Assembly (NCBI RefSeq): GCF_053078305.1
Contig: NZ_CP166879.1
Reading direction: 5' to 3' (one strand)
Length of the DNA stretch: 64,000 nt
Of the stretch, positions 28,788 to 39,913 are shown one piece after another (the first letter of the stretch is position 1; the number at the start of each line of letters is the position of its first letter). A program made the translations under genes and the position numbers. The notes under the pieces are model-generated. The model searched no databases. It was not told the DNA's origin and worked only from the letters and a program-made list of their open reading frames with translations.

Positions 28788-30122
28788 ATGTCTAAATCGA
28801 CTTTTTTACACATTCTGATTAGCTCCATCATATTGGTGGCACTAATACAATCATCCGCCTGGGCCACTTGTTCTAATACACGCGTCGGACAAACGGAGGA
28901 CGGAAGATCGGCACTCATTGAGTTCGGAAAAATTAACCTGACCGACACCTATTTTGCGCCAGTAGGCTCACTACTCGCGACAACGGTCGTACCTTCCACT
29001 AACTACACATCAGGTGGCGCGTCAGGAAGCTCCGTACTGTGGGAATGTGACGCAACAGATTTGCCAAACATCTATTTTCTGGTCGCAACCAATGGCGACG
29101 ACCGCGTGGGTGGCTTTCACAATGCAGGCGGGCCTGATGGTCTGAGTGATGTCTATGCCACCTGGTTTGCTTTTGTCGGTCTCAAGCAGACTATGGCGGG
29201 CGTGACGATTGGTCGTTACTGGAAAAAAGTGCCCATCACCAGTTATGCCACTCAGGGAACTAAAATCCAGATCCGCTTACAGGATATCCCTCCTCTTCAT
29301 GCTGAGCTTTACCGTATTAGTACGCTGCCTGATACCGCTGGCGCAACCAGTTACTGCGGTAATACCAATACTGATGGCGACGGTGTGGGGTATGCGAAAC
29401 CCTCCGGCACACCTTATAACTGCACTCAGCCTAATGCCTATATTCAGCTTTCCGGTACCAGTGGTATTCCATTTGCTCATGATGAAGTGGGCGAGGACAG
29501 TGCGGATCACTATGATTTTTGGGGTGCTGATAATGGTTTTGGTTACGGAATGCGTTCGGCCAATCGACTCTACAACAATGCCACCTGCGTTGCCCGCAGC
29601 GCCACGCCGTTAGTATTGCTGCCGACAATTGCAGAAGCACAACTGAATGCGGGCATGGAAAGTACCGGTAATTTTAATGTCCGCGTCGAGTGTAGTAACT
29701 CAGTTCAATCAGGGATTAGTGATACTCAGACAGCATTAGGAATCCAGGTATCTGAAGGTGCATATACAGCAGCGCAAAAACTGGGGATTATCAATAGCAA
29801 CGGCGGAGTCAGCGCCTTAGTCTCAGATAATTATGACGCGGCAGAGATGGCAAAAGGCGTTGGGATCTACATCTCAAACAGTGCTTACCCCGATACGGCG
29901 ATGACGCTGGTTGGTCAACCGGGCATCGCGAAGTTAACCCCCGGAGGAAATGCAGCGGGGTGGTATCCTGTATTTGAAGGGGCAACATTAGAAGGTGCGA
30001 CTCACCCCGGATACTCCAGCTATAGTTACTCTTTTATCGCCCGGTTGAAGAAACTGCCAAATCAGACAGTCAGTGCGGGAAAAGTGCGGGCAACGGCGTA
30101 TATATTGGTGAAAATGCAATGA
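28788..30122 (+). CDS. Putative fimbrial tip adhesin, two-domain (444 aa)
   Basis: Signal peptide, large Cys-containing N-terminal domain plus C-terminal pilin-like domain; position after the usher gene. Confidence 0.5.
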   Translation: MSKSTFLHILISSIILVALIQSSAWATCSNTRVGQTEDGRSALIEFGKINLTDTYFAPVGSLLATTVVPSTNYTSGGASGSSVLWECDATDLPNIYFLVATNGDDRVGGFHNAGGPDGLSDVYATWFAFVGLKQTMAGVTIGRYWKKVPITSYATQGTKIQIRLQDIPPLHAELYRISTLPDTAGATSYCGNTNTDGDGVGYAKPSGTPYNCTQPNAYIQLSGTSGIPFAHDEVGEDSADHYDFWGADNGFGYGMRSANRLYNNATCVARSATPLVLLPTIAEAQLNAGMESTGNFNVRVECSNSVQSGISDTQTALGIQVSEGAYTAAQKLGIINSNGGVSALVSDNYDAAEMAKGVGIYISNSAYPDTAMTLVGQPGIAKLTPGGNAAGWYPVFEGATLEGATHPGYSSYSYSFIARLKKLPNQTVSAGKVRATAYILVKMQ

Positions 30123-30808
30123 AATCCGTTTTGCTGCTCTTAACCGTCTTGTTCGTACAGTCAGTGGAAGCCGGCATCATGCCGGCTTCTTCACGGATTA
30201 TTTATCGCGATGGCGATCGGGAAAAGACGCTGATGTTGGTCAATACCAATGACTACCCGGTACTGGTGCAAAGTTGGGTAGATAATGGTGAAGGCTCCCC
30301 AGAAGCTGCTTCTCCTCCCTTTGTGGTGCTGCCACCGGTTTTCCGCCTGGTAGCGAAACGAACCCAGGGATTACGGATTATCTATAATCATGACCCACTT
30401 CCCCAGGATCGCGAATCTGCATTCTGGTTAAATCTTTATGAAATGCCGCCAGAAACTCCCCATCAAGATCCCACACATTTAACGCTGGCAATGAATACGC
30501 AACTTAAAATCTTTTACAGGCCAAAATCTGTAACTATGACGCCCCAAGAAGCTATGCGTAAAATAAGTTGGCATCTGGGTAACGACGGCAGCAGTAGCTA
30601 TATTGAGCTTAATAACCCAACACCACTGAATATCTCTTTCACCTCCATCAGCATTGGGGCTACAAAGGTGCAGCAAGAAAGCGATATGATGATAAAACCC
30701 TTCAGTCAACGACGGTACTGGTTAGCAAGTAATAACGTTAGTGGTGTGGTTGCGGCGACATATCTCGATGATAATGGTGCACAGATAAAACAACAATTAG
30801 CGCAATAA
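30119..30808 (+). CDS. Second periplasmic fimbrial chaperone, PapD-like (229 aa)
   Basis: PapD-family motifs (RIIYRDGDREKTLMLVN, FWLNL, LKIFYRP); start overlaps the adhesin gene stop. Confidence 0.75.
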   Translation: MKSVLLLLTVLFVQSVEAGIMPASSRIIYRDGDREKTLMLVNTNDYPVLVQSWVDNGEGSPEAASPPFVVLPPVFRLVAKRTQGLRIIYNHDPLPQDRESAFWLNLYEMPPETPHQDPTHLTLAMNTQLKIFYRPKSVTMTPQEAMRKISWHLGNDGSSSYIELNNPTPLNISFTSISIGATKVQQESDMMIKPFSQRRYWLASNNVSGVVAATYLDDNGAQIKQQLAQ

Positions 30809-30953
30809 TGCTCTGAGTGGTATGTAAACTCATCGCGATGGTTCAACGCTAACGAATAACCACTATACCCACCTGGAGTACCGGAAGTGGAGAAATGACA
30901 AAATCTCTCCACTCCATTTTCCAGTCAAAACACCTCAACGCAGCCAAAAATCG

Positions 30954-31745
30954 TTAACGAATTGAATATCCACCATCAATGACTAATAGTTGTCCATTGA
31001 CATAATCTGAAGCGGCACTGGCGAGGAACACCATTGCGCCCATAAGATCCTGTGCCCTTCCCCAGCGTTGAGCCGGTATACGCCCTTTTATTAACTCTTT
31101 TATTTTAGGGTTATTATAAATAATAGCGGTCATTTCACTCACATAATATCCTGGGGCGATACCATTAATCTGAATATTATATTCCGCAAAATCATCGGCA
31201 TACGCTTTGGTCAGCCCCGCTAAAGCATGTTTAGTCGCCGCATACCCTGGCGACCAACGTCCCCCATGAAATGACAATACGGAACACATATTAATAACTT
31301 TCCCTTTTCTTTGCGGGACAAATATATTCAATGCGGCCTGGCTCATATCGAATGCAGCATTCAGGTTGAGATTAATCATCGGATCCCAGTCGTTTCGATT
31401 GAAATCGATAGGACGATTAATGTTACACACGCCCGCGTTATTGACCAGAATATCTAACTGACCGAAACGCTCCAGACACCTATTAATAATGGTGCATGCT
31501 GCATCAGGTTTTGTTATGTCTATTGTCATAAACTCAACTTCAACGCCTTCATGAGTTAAATGCTTTAAATATTTATTATCAGGCTCTTTGATGTCTACCA
31601 ACAACAGATTAGCTCCTGCTTTGGCCAGAGCAGAGCATAAGCCTCTCCCCAGTTCACCCGCGGCCCCAGTTACGATGGCCACCTTGTTATGTAAAGAAAA
31701 AAAATCCAATGAAAAATCTTCAATAGAAAAGCTCATATCACACAT
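30954..31745 (-). CDS. Short-chain dehydrogenase/reductase, KduD/FabG-like (263 aa)
   Basis: TGAAGELGRG Rossmann motif, NNAG, and Tyr/Lys catalytic pair (YAATK). Confidence 0.7.
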   Translation of the reverse strand: MCDMSFSIEDFSLDFFSLHNKVAIVTGAAGELGRGLCSALAKAGANLLLVDIKEPDNKYLKHLTHEGVEVEFMTIDITKPDAACTIINRCLERFGQLDILVNNAGVCNINRPIDFNRNDWDPMINLNLNAAFDMSQAALNIFVPQRKGKVINMCSVLSFHGGRWSPGYAATKHALAGLTKAYADDFAEYNIQINGIAPGYYVSEMTAIIYNNPKIKELIKGRIPAQRWGRAQDLMGAMVFLASAASDYVNGQLLVIDGGYSIR

Positions 31746-32423
31746 TGCTCCTTATGAGTAAGTAATATTTAAGGTGTAATTTAAGTAATTTTTAGATTTC
31801 AATAAAAAACTAAACGTATAAAACTCAGCATGAATAATAAACATCAAATCTTATATATTTTTAAGTAGTGATGCATCACGTAAAAAATATAGTCATCATA
31901 GATGTTATGCAGTACGCACAAAAAAAACAGGCTGGAATTGCTTGCTGATTTATAATCTTTATCTAAATTACTATTGGCGCTTTGGATAATAACATAAGCA
32001 TATATTACCTCCTAGCAATAATAGAGATAACCTCATATCAAGGTGTCACTGGTAAATAATCGGATAAAAGACAGTATCGGTCGGCGCATAGAGCTTCTTC
32101 TATTTCACCAGAAGTGCACAGCAGGAACTACCAATCACACGGTTAGTGTCATGGGTGGAGGATGCGGCCCGTTCTTTCCCTATAACAGGGTTACGCAGTT
32201 TCAATCAGTACATGCAGAAAAACCCCTAATTCACATCACTGCAGAAAGCATTTAATAGAAATATACATCGTTTAAGAATTTCAATTAAATCAAGATTATT
32301 CTTAAAAATCAGATAATTCACATTTGCATTTTTAGGAAATTATACTATAGTGCACTTAATGTTCTTGCCTTTATTTTCTGAGTAATACTGGATTTGTAAT
32401 ACACAACTAAGGTATAAAATGTA

Positions 32424-33236
32424 ATGATCTACATTATAAATGATGAAGTAAGATTCAACTCATCATCTAATAAGTTAACATCACTCCTTACATCAGAGGA
32501 AGTGATACTCACTTATCCTGCGGGAAAATGCTTAAAGTTACTTTTAGATAACGCTTATAGTGTCGTGTCACACAATCAATTCTTTGAAAAAGTCTGGAGC
32601 GATAGCAGTGCCGAAGTCGCAACCAACACTTTATATCAAAATATATCGATGATAAGACGTTCTTTTCGTGAAATCAGCTCAGCGACGATATTTAATGATG
32701 TTATCAGAACGGTGCCCCGTAAAGGCTTCAAAATCAATGAAGAAATCAGCATAACTGTTCTCGACAATAATCACAATGAGAATGAAAGTGTTGAGAGTGA
32801 AGAGAATGGTACCCACACTGAAAATATAAATAAAAATCACATTGCAAAAGGTATATTTACCACAAAGAATACATTGCTTATAGTTTGTTTTTTTGCGGCA
32901 TGGGGGATAGTGTATATATCTTCTTATTTTTTCGATATGGCTTTTCAAAGCAAATCCCACACTATAAAAAAAATAGATGCTTTCTCAAATTATGCTCAAC
33001 ACCCTACTCAGGAAGGATGCAGTTATTTCTATGATAATAAATACTTTAATTCCGTAGACATGTTATCACCGATTATTGAAAAATTGCAGAAGATGGAAAT
33101 TAACTGCAAAATACATCCTTACATTTACATTGCAACAAATGATAGCATGAGCGGATTTTATGCTTTCACCTGTAGTCAGATGTTAAACTCTGAATCACCA
33201 AATAATTGCAACTCTCTCTATTATAAAGCGGAGTAA
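32424..33236 (+). CDS. ToxR/CadC-like membrane-anchored transcriptional regulator (270 aa)
   Basis: N-terminal OmpR/PhoB-type winged-helix segment (…FEKVWSDSSAEVATNTLYQNISMIRR…TVPRKGFKI), one TM helix (LLIVCFFAAWGIVYISSYFF), periplasmic C-terminus; AT-rich. Confidence 0.6.
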   Translation: MIYIINDEVRFNSSSNKLTSLLTSEEVILTYPAGKCLKLLLDNAYSVVSHNQFFEKVWSDSSAEVATNTLYQNISMIRRSFREISSATIFNDVIRTVPRKGFKINEEISITVLDNNHNENESVESEENGTHTENINKNHIAKGIFTTKNTLLIVCFFAAWGIVYISSYFFDMAFQSKSHTIKKIDAFSNYAQHPTQEGCSYFYDNKYFNSVDMLSPIIEKLQKMEINCKIHPYIYIATNDSMSGFYAFTCSQMLNSESPNNCNSLYYKAE

Positions 33237-33240
33237 TCAT

Positions 33241-33732
33241 ATGACTCAAAGATATTTTCTGTTTGCGGGAATAATTTTATGTGCTTTTATTGCAGCAATT
33301 CTGAGCCATATTGCGTTTCATCATGCCAATGAACCAGCAGAGCAAAACATATCATGTAATGCCCATGTTATTAATTTCACCGATCATACAAAAATGGATC
33401 AATATTTTTCGTTAAATATGATTTCTGAAAATAACACAGGAAACATGTATCTCACGGGCGCATACACGGTAGATGGAAAAAAGATGGGCTTCATCCGCCG
33501 ATATGTGAGTTTTACATACAAGAAATTCCGTGATACCGTTTACTTCACCACTGTTAAAATACAAAAAATACAAAAAGATGATAACATTAGTGATGAAATC
33601 CTTGAAAATATCACTTCTGATTTTTTCATAAAAGTAGACACCTCAATTAATTTTTATGTTACACGTCAAAATGATTACAACTACGTATTCTCTACAGGCA
33701 GGACACCACGCTTCATATGTATTTCCCACTAA
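33241..33732 (+). CDS. Small membrane-anchored periplasmic protein, possible ToxS-like partner (163 aa)
   Basis: Single N-terminal TM helix then soluble domain; start 5 nt after the ToxR-like gene stop. Confidence 0.4.
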   Translation: MTQRYFLFAGIILCAFIAAILSHIAFHHANEPAEQNISCNAHVINFTDHTKMDQYFSLNMISENNTGNMYLTGAYTVDGKKMGFIRRYVSFTYKKFRDTVYFTTVKIQKIQKDDNISDEILENITSDFFIKVDTSINFYVTRQNDYNYVFSTGRTPRFICISH

Positions 33733-33833
33733 CAGCATTGTTGCTTCTGGCGTTTGTCACCAGTTAATAACCTTCTGATGGCTTTGTTTATATTTTAAGG
33801 CAATAAAAAACCATTCCAATATTGGTTAATTAT

Positions 33834-35444
33834 TTATCTGTTTACATACCATTGATAAAACTCTGTCGCTTTCATTGGTTTTGCATATAAGTATCCCTGA
33901 ACTAATGTCACGTTATTATGAATAAGATATTCCGCCTGGTGAGGAGTACTGACACCTTCTGCAATCGTTATCAAATTGAGTCGATTACTCAGCTTAATAA
34001 TAATATCTAAAACTGGCGTTTCGTCTTCCGCTGTAGTGAGTGTGTCTATAAAGCTTTTATCTATTTTAAGATAATCAACAGACAACTTTTGCAGAAGGCC
34101 AAGGGAACAATATCCCGTGCCAAAATCATCAACTGCAAATTCACAGCCATGGATCCTTAATTCATTTATTTTCTGTAATGCAAGATCAGTATCTTCAACC
34201 AGATTGCGTTCGGTAATCTCAAGAACAATGTTAAATTTATCAGATATTTCATTTTTAATATGTAAAACATCAGCAACAAAATCAGGATGTGCAAGATGCT
34301 CCGCGGCAATATTTATCCCAAGGTGAAACGGCTTTTTCACTTTCCAGCTTTGTACATCCTGAATAATCAGTTCAAAGAGATGCTTAGTTAACGGTATAAT
34401 TAAATTTTCCTCTTCTGCAGCGCGGATAAAAACTACCGGAGATATATTTTTACCATCTTCGCGTTGCCAACGCATTAACGCCTCAACCCCCAGACACGCT
34501 TTGGTTGTCGTGTCACATACTGGTTGATAATGCACAGAAAATTCTCCGGATGACATTCCTTTCTTAATTTCTTCTGCCAGGGACATTTTCCGAGATATCC
34601 AGCGCTGCCATAAGAAGTACAGAATAAAAGAAAGAAGAATAGATAATGGAAGAATGTAAAATACATTACTAATGACATAGGGATATAATGAAATCATCGG
34701 CGTAGTAACTGTAAGACTAGCCTGACTGATCGCAGAATTAAAATCTTTTTTTAACATATATAACTTGTCATTATTATTTACACCACTAATAATTGCAGGC
34801 CCTTCAGTAAAGCTAAGAGAAAATGAATCATCATTCTCATCATCAAGAACATCCATCAGATCATAGATATATCGTGACTCTACAATACTAAAAGCTGTCA
34901 TATCATTCCCTATTGGCATAAGGAACACTATGGCTGTTTTACCTGGTACAAAACTTGTACCGCTAATTGATACTATGCGTGATTCTTTATTTTTATTGTG
35001 AAAGCTCGTACCGTAAACATCGTTAACATTCATTTTTTTGAAACCGCTAACTGAAGAACATATTTGGAAATTATTTTCTATAAGCCCCGTTGTTCGAACA
35101 TAGGGGGTCAATGCTCCGTTAGCAATCAATTGTTCCAGGATATCTTTGCAGGGTTTCATCACCAGAATAGAAGTAAGCTTTGTCGTATGTTTTACAATTT
35201 GCGTAACATTATCAAGCTGTTTTAACAGAATACCGGCGGTAATTGTCGTATCTCGATTCATTTGAAATACTGACATAGCAAACGACAGTAACACCCCCAG
35301 AATGCCTGGTATTATAATGAGTACAAACATTTTTTTGTTGAATACCATACATGTTTCCCCACGCATCAGGGTGATGCAACCTAAGAAATTATAGTACAAT
35401 TGCCAGTAAAAGCGGGTGATAGCAGACTGATCAATGATAAGCAT
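33834..35444 (-). CDS. Membrane-bound EAL-domain c-di-GMP phosphodiesterase with periplasmic sensor domain (up to 536 aa; start possibly at 35348)
   Basis: Two TM segments flanking a periplasmic domain; cytoplasmic EAL domain with EALMRWQ and downstream DDFGTGYCSL motifs. Gene symbol left blank because equivalence to the O157 vmpA gene is only from memory. Confidence 0.75.
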   Translation of the reverse strand: MLIIDQSAITRFYWQLYYNFLGCITLMRGETCMVFNKKMFVLIIIPGILGVLLSFAMSVFQMNRDTTITAGILLKQLDNVTQIVKHTTKLTSILVMKPCKDILEQLIANGALTPYVRTTGLIENNFQICSSVSGFKKMNVNDVYGTSFHNKNKESRIVSISGTSFVPGKTAIVFLMPIGNDMTAFSIVESRYIYDLMDVLDDENDDSFSLSFTEGPAIISGVNNNDKLYMLKKDFNSAISQASLTVTTPMISLYPYVISNVFYILPLSILLSFILYFLWQRWISRKMSLAEEIKKGMSSGEFSVHYQPVCDTTTKACLGVEALMRWQREDGKNISPVVFIRAAEEENLIIPLTKHLFELIIQDVQSWKVKKPFHLGINIAAEHLAHPDFVADVLHIKNEISDKFNIVLEITERNLVEDTDLALQKINELRIHGCEFAVDDFGTGYCSLGLLQKLSVDYLKIDKSFIDTLTTAEDETPVLDIIIKLSNRLNLITIAEGVSTPHQAEYLIHNNVTLVQGYLYAKPMKATEFYQWYVNR

Positions 35445-35541
35445 TTAAGATCATATAGTACTATGATATTTCTGAAAATTGTTACGCATGTCTGCGAATA
35501 GCTATTTAGCGCTTACCAAAATCACCCGCTAAAATGCCGCT

Positions 35542-36900
35542 TTATGGTGACTCACAAAAATTCACCACATCCCTCACAACCACCTTATTACGCCCGGTCT
35601 CTTTCGCCTCGTATAGTGCGTTATCAGCCAGTCGATAGATCTCATTCGGGTTTAACGCATTTCCCTGAGTCACAACAGCGCCAATACTAATCGTCACTTT
35701 TTGTGGTATGGCGTATTCAGGATTATCACCAGTTAAACGCTCAACATTTTCCCGAATCCTTTCCGCTAAAGCTTTCGCACGTTCAGTATCGATGTCCGTC
35801 AGCAAGACGCCAAACTCTTCGCCGCCGACGCGCGCAAAAAGGTCATCTGGCCGTATGCTTTTCCCAATGATATTCACCACTGTTTTTATCACCTGATCGC
35901 CAATCGGATGCCCCCAGGTGTCGTTGACTTTTTTGAAGTGGTCGATATCCATAAGCATGACGCAATAAGGCGTTTTTTTGGCCGATGCTGATTGAACCGT
36001 CAGTTCATTAAAAAAATAATTTCTGTTAAATATATTGGTTAAGGGATCGCGATGTGCAATGTCCTTTGTTACTCGTAGCGCACTGAATATATGGCACATA
36101 AATATTACCATAACGGTTAACTTACTGACTACTTCAATAGTGCGACTAATATACCAAATGGACACGCTATACCTGCTCATAAATAAAAGAGAGACATTGT
36201 ACAGTACGGCACAAAAAGCAATCACCGTCACTCCATTCCAGATATCATAGCGTAAACCATTAAAGTATAGATTAACCGAAAGCAAGGTTAACCACATGAA
36301 AATCATTATGGTAACATATGAAGCTTTCCAAACCACTTGACCATTTTCATTGGTTAACTCGGCAATGTGTAAATCGTAGCTCTCATAATGGCTAGAAAGT
36401 ATGTGAGCAACTATCGGCCCCCCAAGAACAAAAAACAAACTTATGCACAAAGTCATTTTTTTGGAAAATAAATTGCGCTGTTTTGTGTTTTCACTAACTT
36501 TATTCACCAATGCCAGAAATATTAATATGCACAAACTCATCTGACGAAACAAATAATAAATTGCAATGTCATTTTGAACAACACTGCTTGTCAAACGCCC
36601 CTCAATCATTTGCTGAATGATAATGACGGTTTTAACAAAGTAAATCAAACAACTCAGAAAAGCCAAACTAAGTATACAGTTTGAAAATTGCCTACGGTCA
36701 TAAATGAAATACAACTGCATAAAAATAAATGCAACAGTATCGATAAAAAATAAAGCAATCATTACCATCAGATAGGTTGATAGTGGAACAACCTCCTCAA
36801 CGCCTGGCTGATTAAACCAACTATTCACCAAAACCAAAGCAAGCCCAAACAATAAGCTCACTAAGACAGTACTACTAATTCTCAAATAGTCTTTTTCCAT
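35542..36900 (-). CDS. dgcT: Membrane-anchored diguanylate cyclase DgcT/YcdT (452 aa; ORF track extends 41 codons upstream)
   Basis: Multi-TM N-terminal domain plus GGDEF domain (RVGGEEFGVLL); N-terminus MEKDYLRISSTVLV matches recalled YcdT; divergent from pgaA. Confidence 0.85.
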   Translation of the reverse strand: MEKDYLRISSTVLVSLLFGLALVLVNSWFNQPGVEEVVPLSTYLMVMIALFFIDTVAFIFMQLYFIYDRRQFSNCILSLAFLSCLIYFVKTVIIIQQMIEGRLTSSVVQNDIAIYYLFRQMSLCILIFLALVNKVSENTKQRNLFSKKMTLCISLFFVLGGPIVAHILSSHYESYDLHIAELTNENGQVVWKASYVTIMIFMWLTLLSVNLYFNGLRYDIWNGVTVIAFCAVLYNVSLLFMSRYSVSIWYISRTIEVVSKLTVMVIFMCHIFSALRVTKDIAHRDPLTNIFNRNYFFNELTVQSASAKKTPYCVMLMDIDHFKKVNDTWGHPIGDQVIKTVVNIIGKSIRPDDLFARVGGEEFGVLLTDIDTERAKALAERIRENVERLTGDNPEYAIPQKVTISIGAVVTQGNALNPNEIYRLADNALYEAKETGRNKVVVRDVVNFCESP

Positions 36901-37249
36901 AAAGCTACACCAACCTGTAGGTTGTAGATCCCTTTCTATTATTAATAGATATAAGAACTGTACAGTTGTCAATATGAAAACCCACTCACAAACAATACCG
37001 ATGATGATAGTTGCAGGCCGCAATTATTATTACCTTAGTGCTTTATACATTCTTTGCGACAAGACAGGCTTGCAAATATTTATAAATGGTTATAAGGAAA
37101 TCCTTATAAAACATTCATTCATAGATATATTAGGAATAACAATTGAATCCGTGAGTACAGTAACGCTGCATTTCATCAGGACTTTCGAAAAATCCGAAAT
37201 CATGCATCGGAATTTACTGATTTAATTATTTTACTCCTAATTTATTTTG

Positions 37250-37489
37250 AAAAAGGCATTGGGATTTATGCCGTATTCCTGAAGATCCTCATCATTGGAA
37301 TGGATTTTCGGGCGAGAAAAGGATTTTATATGGACACTCTGCTCATCATTTCTTCTTCTCATCATCAACAATTCACGTCTCTCTTCCGCGTTTAATAACG
37401 GATTATGAGGTGCAAAAAAATATCTTTCTTTTCAGTTACCTGTCATTAGATACAGAGAGAGATTTTGGCAATACATGGAGTAATACAGG
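37250..37489 (+). promoter_or_regulatory. pgaA 5' leader region with multiple GGA motifs (candidate CsrA-binding sites), one overlapping the SD/start (acaggatgt)
   Basis: GGA motifs read directly (cattggaatggatttt, aaaaggatttt, ataacggattatgagg, catggagtaatacaggATG); CsrA control of the pgaA leader is established for K-12. Confidence 0.5.
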
Positions 37490-39913
37490 ATGTATTCAAG
37501 TAGCAGAAAAAGGTGCCCGCAAACCAAATGGGCTTTGAAAATTCTTACTGCCGCATTTTTAGCAGCGAGTCCCGCGGCGAAGAGTGCCGTTAATAACGCC
37601 TATGATGCATTGATTATTGAAGCTCGCAAGGGAAATACTCAGCCAGTTTTGTTATGGTTTGCACAAAAATCAGCACTCAGTAATAACCAAATTGCTGACT
37701 GGTTACAGATTGCCTTATGGGCCGGGCAAGATAAACAGGTTATTACCGTTTACAACCGCTACCGTTATCAGCAATTACCAGCGCGTGGTTATGCAGCTGT
37801 CGCAGTCGCTTATCGTAACCTGCAACAATGGCAAAACTCGCTTACACTGTGGCAAAAGGCGCTCTCTCTGGAGCCGCAAAATAAGGATTATCAACGGGGA
37901 CAAATTTTAACCCTGGCAGATGCGGGTCACTATGATACTGCGCTGGTTAAACTTAAGCAGCTTAACTCTGGAGCACCGGACAAAGCCAATTTACTCGCAG
38001 AAGCCTATATCTATAAACTGGCAGGGCGTCATCAGGATGAATTACGGGCGATGACAGAGTCATTACCTGAAAATGCATCTACGCAACAATATCCCACAGA
38101 ATACGTGCAGGCATTACGTAATAATCAACTTGCTGCCGCGATTGACGATGCCAATTTAACGCCAGATATTCGCGCTGATATTCATGCCGAACTGGTCAGA
38201 CTGTCGTTTATGCCTACGCGCAGTGAAAGTGAACGTTATGCCATTGCCGATCGCGCCCTCGCCCAATACGCTGCATTAGAAATTCTGTGGCATGATAACC
38301 CTGACCGCACTGCCCAGTACCAGCGTATTCAGATCGATCATCTTGGCGCGTTATTAACTCGCGATCGTTATAAAGACGTTATTTCTCACTATCAGCGTTT
38401 AAAAAAGACGGGGCAAATTATTCCGCCCTGGGCGCAATATTGGGTTGCGTCGGCTTATCTCAAAGAACATCAGCCAAAAAAAGCACAGTCAATAATGACA
38501 GAGCTCTTTTATCACAAGGAGACCATTGCCCCGGATTTATCCGATGAAGAACTTGCGGATCTCTTTTACAGCCACCTGGAGAGTGAAAATTATCCCGGCG
38601 CGCTAACTGTCACCCAACATACCATTAATACTTCGCCGCCTTTCCTTCGGTTAATGGGCACGCCTACGAGCATCCCGAATGATACCTGGTTACAGGGGCA
38701 TTCGTTTCTCTCAACCGTAGCAAAATATAGTAATGATCTTCCTCAGGCTGAAATGACAGCCAGAGAGCTTGCTTATAACGCACCAGGAAATCAGGGACTG
38801 CGCATTGATTACGCGAGTGTGTTACAAGCCCGCGGTTGGCCTCGTGCAGCAGAAAATGAATTAAAAAAAGCAGAAGTGATCGAGCCACGTAATATTAATC
38901 TGGAGGTTGAACAAGCCTGGACAGCATTAACGTTACAAGAATGGCAGCAGGCAGCTGTCTTTACGCACGATGTTGTCGAACGTGAACCGCAATATCCTGG
39001 CGTTGTACGTTTAAAACGTGCGGTTGATGTACATAATCTTGCAGAGCTTCGTATCGCTGGCTCAACAGGAATTGATGCCGAAGGCCCGGATAGTGGTAAA
39101 CATGATGTCGACTTAACCACCATCGTTTATTCACCACCGCTAAATGATAACTGGCGCGGTTTTGCTGGATTCGGTTATGCCGATGGACAATTTAGCGAAG
39201 GAAAAGGGATTGTTCGCGACTGGCTTGCGGGTGTTGAGTGGCGGTCACGTAATATCTGGCTCGAGGCGGAGTACGCTGAACGCTTTTTCAATCATGAGCA
39301 TAAACCCGGCGCGCGCCTTTCTGGCTGGTATGATTTTAATGATAATTGGCGTATTGGTTCGCAACTGGAACGCCTCTCTCACCGCGTTCCATTACGGGCA
39401 ATGAAAAATGGTGTTACAGGCAACAGTGCTCAGGCTTATGTTCGCTGGTATCAAAATGAGCGGCGTAAGTACGGTGTCTCCTGGGCTTTCACTGATTTTT
39501 CCGACAGTAACCAGCGTCATGAAGTCTCAATTGAGGGTCAGGAACGCATCTGGTCTTCACCATATTTGATTGTCGATTTCCTACCCAGTCTGTATTACGA
39601 ACAAAATACAGAACACGATACCCCATACTACAACCCTATAAAAACGTTCGATATTGTTCCGGCATTTGAGGCAAGTCATTTGTTATGGCGAAGCTATGAA
39701 AATAGCTGGGAGCAAATCTTCAGCGCAGGTGTTGGTGCCTCCTGGCAAAAACATTATGGCACGGATGTCGTCACCCAACTCGGCTACGGGCAACGCATTA
39801 GCTGGAATGACGTGATTGATGCTGGCGCAACGCTACGCTGGGAAAAACGACCTTATGACGGTGACAGAGAACACAACTTATACGTTGAATTCGATATGAC
39901 ATTCAGATTTTAA
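37490..39913 (+). CDS. pgaA: PGA export porin PgaA (807 aa)
   Basis: Matches recalled PgaA (MYSSSRKRCP..., TPR-rich N-terminal domain, beta-barrel C-terminus). Confidence 0.9.
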   Translation: MYSSSRKRCPQTKWALKILTAAFLAASPAAKSAVNNAYDALIIEARKGNTQPVLLWFAQKSALSNNQIADWLQIALWAGQDKQVITVYNRYRYQQLPARGYAAVAVAYRNLQQWQNSLTLWQKALSLEPQNKDYQRGQILTLADAGHYDTALVKLKQLNSGAPDKANLLAEAYIYKLAGRHQDELRAMTESLPENASTQQYPTEYVQALRNNQLAAAIDDANLTPDIRADIHAELVRLSFMPTRSESERYAIADRALAQYAALEILWHDNPDRTAQYQRIQIDHLGALLTRDRYKDVISHYQRLKKTGQIIPPWAQYWVASAYLKEHQPKKAQSIMTELFYHKETIAPDLSDEELADLFYSHLESENYPGALTVTQHTINTSPPFLRLMGTPTSIPNDTWLQGHSFLSTVAKYSNDLPQAEMTARELAYNAPGNQGLRIDYASVLQARGWPRAAENELKKAEVIEPRNINLEVEQAWTALTLQEWQQAAVFTHDVVEREPQYPGVVRLKRAVDVHNLAELRIAGSTGIDAEGPDSGKHDVDLTTIVYSPPLNDNWRGFAGFGYADGQFSEGKGIVRDWLAGVEWRSRNIWLEAEYAERFFNHEHKPGARLSGWYDFNDNWRIGSQLERLSHRVPLRAMKNGVTGNSAQAYVRWYQNERRKYGVSWAFTDFSDSNQRHEVSIEGQERIWSSPYLIVDFLPSLYYEQNTEHDTPYYNPIKTFDIVPAFEASHLLWRSYENSWEQIFSAGVGASWQKHYGTDVVTQLGYGQRISWNDVIDAGATLRWEKRPYDGDREHNLYVEFDMTFRF

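Follow-up and report, generated by a model that had tools for sequence, protein, structure and literature searches.

Several described systems stand close to the gene pair analysed here. CadC is a membrane-anchored winged-helix regulator of the ToxR family, with a large periplasmic sensor, that works with LysP. ToxS is reported to protect ToxR, and TcpH to protect TcpP, from proteolysis, and among the barrels of the VtrA/VtrC–ToxR/ToxS superfamily bile binding has been demonstrated only for VtrC and ToxS. GrvA/FidL was already listed as a "co-component" system by Kinch et al. (PNAS 2022, PMC9214523), who assign to FidL a lipocalin-like barrel containing a conserved disulfide, present an AlphaFold2 (AF2) model of the GrvA/FidL complex with an interface like that of VtrA/VtrC, and report that the periplasmic domains of YqeI and YqeJ form a complex when co-expressed. 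A 2026 preprint again names GrvA-FidL among such regulators. Two paralogous pairs have a like architecture and gene order: YqeI/YqeJ of Escherichia coli K-12 (an ETT2 remnant) and, from its description in the literature, MarT/FidL of Salmonella (SPI-3).

What has been published on GrvA function reaches us here through summaries, in reviews, of the work of Tobe 2005 and Morgan 2013/2016 (PMC10877973, PMC8565820, PMC6393859). In these summaries overexpression of GrvA raises ler transcription and adherence, and in O157:H7 GrvA increases LEE expression and decreases GAD acid resistance, the effect on LEE being indirect, through GadW and then GadE. The same summaries have RcsB activating grvA, with binding at the grvA promoter reported or hypothesised (PMC8565820, PMC6393859), and the inputs that they name, RcsB and bicarbonate, act at the level of transcription. 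These review accounts, through which the Morgan 2016 study is cited here, describe no ligand, no direct DNA target and no requirement for FidL. Deletion of the entire O-island 47 (OI-47), on the other hand, raised type III secretion (PMC3378721), a result that does not fit a simple picture of GrvA as an activator; the net effect of the island is therefore not simply that of GrvA.

The gene pair of O-island 47

The window, a stretch of 64,000 nucleotides from RefSeq assembly GCF_053078305.1 (contig NZ_CP166879.1), contains the GrvA–FidL pair of E. coli OI-47, orthologous to the genes of O157:H7. The two proteins are identical at 269 of 270 and 162 of 163 positions to ECs_1274 (grvA, z1531) and ECs_1273 (FidL-like protein) of O157:H7 Sakai, with one conservative substitution in each (E64 here versus D; M82 here versus I). 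Positions 2268-42872 of the window are collinear with the Sakai island from pgaC to ycdU (40.6 kb, 97.9%), and the pair has the same chromosomal position and the same island gene order: pgaABCD, dgcT, pdeT (vmpA), fidL, grvA, a short-chain dehydrogenase (SDR) gene, a chaperone-usher fimbrial operon, a TPS pair and ACP/ketosynthase genes. The differences from Sakai OI-47 are that the host lineage is here mostly LEE-negative and that the tpsA gene of the island is truncated. RefSeq calls the first product 'winged helix-turn-helix domain-containing protein' and the second 'YqeJ family protein', 'FidL' or 'hypothetical protein', beside pdeT. The first-pass annotation had not recognised the pair as the named GrvA/FidL of OI-47, and it is already known. 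The features of the pair are as follows.

32424..33236, + strand: grvA, membrane-anchored ToxR-family transcription regulator (270 aa), 32% identical to K-12 YqeI (E=8e-39)
32496..32732, + strand: winged-helix DNA-binding region of GrvA, residues 25-103 (Pfam Trans_reg_C, PF00486, E=4.1e-11; best PDB sequence match 8b4b)
32868..32933, + strand: predicted single transmembrane segment of GrvA, residues ~149-170, no other stretch reaching a 19-residue Kyte-Doolittle mean of 1.6
32937..33233, + strand: predicted periplasmic domain of GrvA, residues 172-270, beta-beta-alpha-beta-beta-beta, with Cys199/228/250/262
33230..33233, + strand: GGAG, putative Shine-Dalgarno (SD) sequence of fidL, read from the sequence within the last grvA codons, 7 nt ahead of the ATG at 33241
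33241..33732, + strand: fidL-like gene for a YqeJ-family co-component (163 aa); predicted N-terminal membrane anchor at residues 3-29 and predicted periplasmic lipocalin-like 8-stranded barrel at residues 37-162

Both open reading frames begin with ATG and lie where the first-pass annotation had placed them, and the RefSeq annotation of identical genomes gives the same coordinates. The spacing between them, which had been put at 5 nt, is 4 nt (33237-33240). The GGAG inside the end of grvA and this short gap suggest that the translation of the two genes is coupled, and the layout is typical for a co-translated pair. G+C content is 34% in both genes versus 48% over the whole window. As a unit, the pair is found in 410 of 5426 complete E. 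coli genomes (a 2.1-kb region, one copy per genome), and it is also kept as a pair in Pseudocitrobacter, E. marmotae, Citrobacter and K-12 (yqeIJ); the adjacency of the two genes is thus not due to chance. In every locus examined, a FidL-type gene adjoins a GrvA/YqeI-type gene.

In a comparison with the paralogous YqeI/YqeJ pair, FidL is 21% identical to YqeJ (E=3e-17), the four cysteines of GrvA and the two of FidL align, and the periplasmic parts of the two pairs are only ~20% identical. The two systems also differ in genomic location and in that the yqeIJ reading frames overlap.

Architecture and family placement

The first-pass annotation had assigned to the 270-aa protein an OmpR-type winged helix, and had proposed a profile search as the check that could refute it; that search detected the fold (the Trans_reg_C match listed above). 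The best match of GrvA to a solved structure in a PDB sequence search is the DNA-binding domain of Vibrio cholerae ToxR (8b4b, E=3.8e-7), with PhoB-family proteins and CadC ranking below it, and NCBIfam gives only sub-threshold matches to the winged helix. The rest of the topology proposed earlier, one transmembrane helix and a periplasmic domain, also agrees with the predictions: hydropathy shows one hydrophobic segment (19-residue Kyte-Doolittle mean up to 2.03), followed by a C-terminal domain of about 100 aa. We modelled this domain from ~70 full-length homologues obtained by profile search and trimmed to residues 172-270. The predicted structure (pLDDT 83.6) is a small alpha/beta domain of the ToxR/VtrA type, and its best fold match is the ToxR periplasmic domain. 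Each of its four cysteines is kept in 71-72 of the 72 homologues. Compared with the Pseudocitrobacter orthologue, the DNA-binding domain is 79% identical and the sensor parts 42%; compared with YqeI, the values are 48% and 20%. The sensor parts thus evolve much faster than the DNA-binding domain.

FidL, too, is predicted to span the membrane once, as the first-pass annotation had it, its only hydrophobic segment (residues ~3-29, Kyte-Doolittle mean up to 2.51) being modelled as a helix. The AlphaFold2 model (mean pLDDT 94.9) continues with eight strands and a short helix, and its best fold matches are ToxS and VtrC, with PDB 5kew and 8dml among the hits. In an alignment of 67 sequences, drawn from 78 cluster representatives of an exhaustive HMMER search, Cys39 is invariant and Cys160 at least 90% conserved. 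The conserved cysteines of GrvA and FidL fit the disulfides that Kinch et al. describe for this branch, although it is the cysteines that are seen here. Searches with the FidL sequence returned no match in the PDB, nothing meaningful in NCBIfam and no match in the Pfam-A library that was scanned. Precomputed annotations of the family carry PF27292 (YqeJ_C) and PF15941 (FidL_like), and the absent Pfam match probably reflects an older version of the scanned library, a point to bear in mind wherever a missing Pfam match serves as evidence.

Taken together, a winged-helix DNA-binding domain, a predicted single transmembrane helix in each protein, a predicted ToxR/VtrA-type periplasmic domain and a co-oriented adjacent partner with a predicted lipocalin-like barrel support the placement of GrvA/FidL as a two-protein co-component transmembrane regulator of the VtrA/VtrC–ToxR/ToxS superfamily. 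The ToxR-ToxS arrangement suggested by the first-pass annotation holds in this sense, with ToxR matches for GrvA in both sequence and fold, ToxS and VtrC fold matches for FidL, and the same domain order in both proteins. Strict orthology to ToxR/ToxS was considered and rejected: only the winged helix matches ToxR by sequence, the PDB sequence search detected no similarity between FidL and ToxS, and the structural alignments have 4-14% identity. ToxR has two periplasmic cysteines and GrvA four, and their regulons differ. According to Kinch et al., GrvA is also without the C-terminal helix that ToxR and VtrA possess (PMC9214523). GrvA/FidL is therefore a distant superfamily relative of ToxR/ToxS and not its orthologue.

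Distribution, neighbourhood and upstream region

One review confines OI-47 with grvA to O157:H7 and the O55:H7 progenitor of that serotype, with O145:H28 as a reported exception. Copies of the locus in O157:H7 and O55:H7 are 98.7% identical to the window and those in O145:H28 96.7%, and the 32 closest copies (at least 99%) come from pig, chicken, otter, mink, frog, river-water and human isolates. We searched complete E. coli genomes with a chimeric query made of 3 kb of the grvA locus (31800-34800) and 0.9 kb of Sakai escN, a marker of the LEE. A single matching place, that is, no escN, was seen in 28 of the 29 records most similar to the window, versus two places in the O157:H7 records. Overall there were 1108 places in 774 records, and 410 genomes carry the grvA locus; from these figures we estimate by arithmetic, assuming one place per marker per genome, that ~75 of the 410 grvA-positive genomes carry no escN. 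The pair is not confined to O157:H7, O55:H7 and O145:H28, and it is common in LEE-negative E. coli. Since nearly all of these closest genomes (28 of 29) lack the LEE marker, the published role in LEE regulation cannot be the whole story in the lineage of the window.

The surroundings of the pair are partly conserved between genera. In Pseudocitrobacter sp. RIT415 (locus L004, 1-11303), whose orthologues are 51% identical, the order is TPS, 207-aa gene, six-gene fimbrial cluster, SDR, grvA, fidL; the TPS and SDR genes are thus also retained beside the pair, and sugar-utilisation genes stand in place of the pdeT/dgcT side. The link to the c-di-GMP genes (pdeT/dgcT) on which the first-pass annotation had also remarked is therefore not conserved there. 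In the Citrobacter freundii complex (locus L010, 926-9324), a YqeI-like pair (46% to YqeI) follows a fimbrial operon of like layout, the common order being major subunit, chaperone, usher, ~445-aa subunit and second chaperone; the 446-aa Citrobacter subunit is homologous to the 444-aa subunit of OI-47 (E=2e-29). A related pair in Erwinia lies beside autotransporter and fimbrial genes. A local fimbrial or TPS target of GrvA, as had been suggested earlier, is plausible and receives some support from this synteny.

Several features of the neighbourhood deserve a record of their own. The tpsA gene (18981..22793, minus strand) has an in-frame TAG at codon 697 (20703-20705), a position at which TGG (Trp) stands in Sakai ECs_1282 and in strain LR14, and apart from this stop it is 99.4% identical to Sakai; on account of the stop, the adhesin/haemolysin-like TpsA of this strain is truncated, or its gene a pseudogene. 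Between tpsA and the divergently oriented fimbrial operon lie 1.4 kb of AT-rich DNA, which contain, at 23055-23107, a perfect 17-nt inverted repeat read by eye (CGAATATCTGAAATGAT ... ATCATTTCAGATATTCG, 19-nt spacer). The fimbrial operon is headed by the gene for a 207-aa protein (24184-24807) without a Pfam domain, in a position kept in Pseudocitrobacter; we considered it as a YqeH/EcpR-like regulator and as a match of the 207-aa neighbour in Citrobacter, and it has no similarity to either. On the other side, the start of pdeT/vmpA (33834-35444, minus strand) is ambiguous, the longest reading frame giving 536 aa (as in Sakai ECs_1272) versus 504 aa in newer RefSeq annotation. An Rfam scan of 30800-37600 gave no RNA family at E up to 0.1, and PADLOC gave no defence-system family.

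Upstream of grvA, three candidate regulatory features can be listed.

32291..32304, no strand assigned: RcsAB-box-like pseudo-palindrome CAAGATTATTCTTA (consensus TAAGAWTATTCYTA, up to 2 mismatches), candidate RcsB site
32311..32319, + strand: second copy of AGATWATTC (AGATAATTC), 18 nt after the first copy (32293-32301)
32317..32346, + strand: sigma-70-like promoter candidate TTCACA-18-TATACT (consensus scan 10/12), ~78 nt upstream of the grvA ATG

The pseudo-palindrome CAAGATTATTCTTA is the only match to TAAGAWTATTCYTA with up to 2 mismatches in the window, a window-wide count not above chance, and we infer from its sequence that it may be an RcsB site. It lies within the best-conserved block of an upstream region that is common with Pseudocitrobacter and otherwise diverged, in which TCAGATAATTCACA is unchanged between the two. 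AGATWATTC occurs three times in the window, twice of these here, and the second AGATAATTC and the -35-like TTCACA follow the pseudo-palindrome directly. A promoter and terminator scan of the region gave sites no more numerous than in shuffled sequence. The 678-nt region upstream of grvA also contains an unannotated 70-aa reading frame with a GTG start (32043-32255); this stretch aligns poorly with Pseudocitrobacter, so it is probably not a gene.

Mechanism and alternative explanations

We consider it highly probable (roughly 0.88) that the grvA–fidL operon of OI-47 encodes a co-component transmembrane regulator of the following kind. Transcription of the operon would be driven by the envelope-stress regulator RcsB, as reported in the literature. 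GrvA would reside in the inner membrane, with its winged-helix domain in the cytoplasm, where it would bind DNA while tethered to the membrane, and with a small, presumably disulfide-bonded domain in the periplasm. FidL, anchored by one helix, would expose its lipocalin-like barrel to the periplasm and dock it on the periplasmic sheet of GrvA, in a heterodimer analogous to those of VtrC and ToxS. There, by the same analogy, it may either stabilise the periplasmic domain of GrvA or relay a small hydrophobic signal, possibly bile salts. In O157:H7 the output would be that of the literature, LEE up and GAD acid resistance down via GadW and GadE.

One alternative concerns the role of FidL. It could be a stabiliser that guards the periplasmic domain of GrvA from proteolysis, and not a ligand sensor, with the signal entering mainly through the control of transcription by RcsB. 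We hold this as a possibility, and would not bet on it: the fold of FidL is equally close to ToxS, partner proteins in the family inhibit proteolysis or stimulate heterodimer formation (PMC10269533), the conserved cysteines of GrvA suggest a redox- or DsbA-dependent point of stability, and the upstream inputs named in the reviews act on transcription; but the predicted barrel is lipocalin-like, a fold that in VtrC binds bile salts (PDB 5kew, 8dml), and the roles of sensor and stabiliser can coexist. Another proposal would make GrvA a self-sufficient one-component sensor of the CadC type, and the second gene that of an unrelated small membrane protein. There is weak similarity to CadC at the N-terminus (NCBIfam E=1.6e-4; PDB 5ju7, E=0.11), but the score against the CadC model NF007540 is 20.7 bits versus a cut-off of 400 and covers the winged helix only, so that membership of the CadC family was rejected. 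In addition, the periplasmic domain of ~100 aa is predicted to be ToxR-like and unlike the large CadC sensor, and the second protein, with its modelled ToxS/VtrC fold, would give GrvA a lipocalin-like partner instead of LysP and accompanies GrvA/YqeI-type genes wherever we looked. This proposal is extremely improbable, and the label "CadC-type one-component" in the first-pass annotation is imprecise for a two-protein system.

Two further explanations concern what the co-component regulator does in this lineage. The native, direct role of GrvA/FidL could be to activate the fimbrial operon to which the pair is linked (24184-30808), perhaps together with the divergent TPS genes, with the effects on LEE and GAD secondary, in parallel with the action of PsaE/PsaF on psaA and of MarT on misL; this would add to the mechanism above and not replace it. 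Since LEE is missing in most close relatives, another target must justify the retention of the pair, and members of the family regulate neighbouring surface structures (PMC9214523; PMC10269533, Table 1). The Pseudocitrobacter locus, which keeps the TPS–fimbrial–SDR–grvA–fidL order and drops the pdeT/dgcT side, and the Citrobacter pair downstream of its fimbrial operon point the same way. However, the papers cited here on GrvA contain no experiment that ties GrvA to the OI-47 fimbriae, no motif common to the DNA upstream of grvA and to the fimbrial/tpsA intergenic stretch was found, AGATWATTC being absent from the latter, tpsA is a pseudogene in this strain, and the synteny may reflect mere co-transfer on one island. 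We regard a fimbrial role as tentative, with the odds against it. The absence of LEE, the known output of the pair, in close relatives could also be read as a sign that grvA–fidL is functionless in this strain, carried along silently or in decay on an AT-rich island acquired horizontally; the low G+C of the pair is typical of xenogeneic DNA, and the neighbouring tpsA has its premature stop. But both reading frames are intact, and with a divergence of ~1.3% in the DNA each protein has a single conservative difference from its O157:H7 counterpart, a pattern of substitutions consistent with purifying selection, and all structural cysteines, the SD sequence and the motifs of the promoter region are conserved. 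We therefore judge such decay very improbable.

The co-component regulator favoured here had been named, annotated in RefSeq (winged helix and YqeJ-family/FidL), studied in EHEC and assigned to its superfamily, so its identification carries little weight as a discovery. The residual value of the analysis is in the LEE-independent distribution of the pair and in its conserved linkage to fimbriae. GrvA/FidL might be, and we put this forward as a conjecture more likely to fail than to hold, primarily a gut-signal switch for the OI-47 fimbriae and possibly the TPS adhesin. Passed on with them as a single module in both Escherichia and Pseudocitrobacter, it would have been retained by commensal, animal and environmental E. 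coli that are LEE-negative, and the LEE and GAD effects of O157:H7 would be a later rewiring. Given the spread of the pair in LEE-negative strains and its linkage to one fimbrial/TPS module across genera, the adjacent fimbrial promoter is the first place in which to seek a direct target of GrvA.
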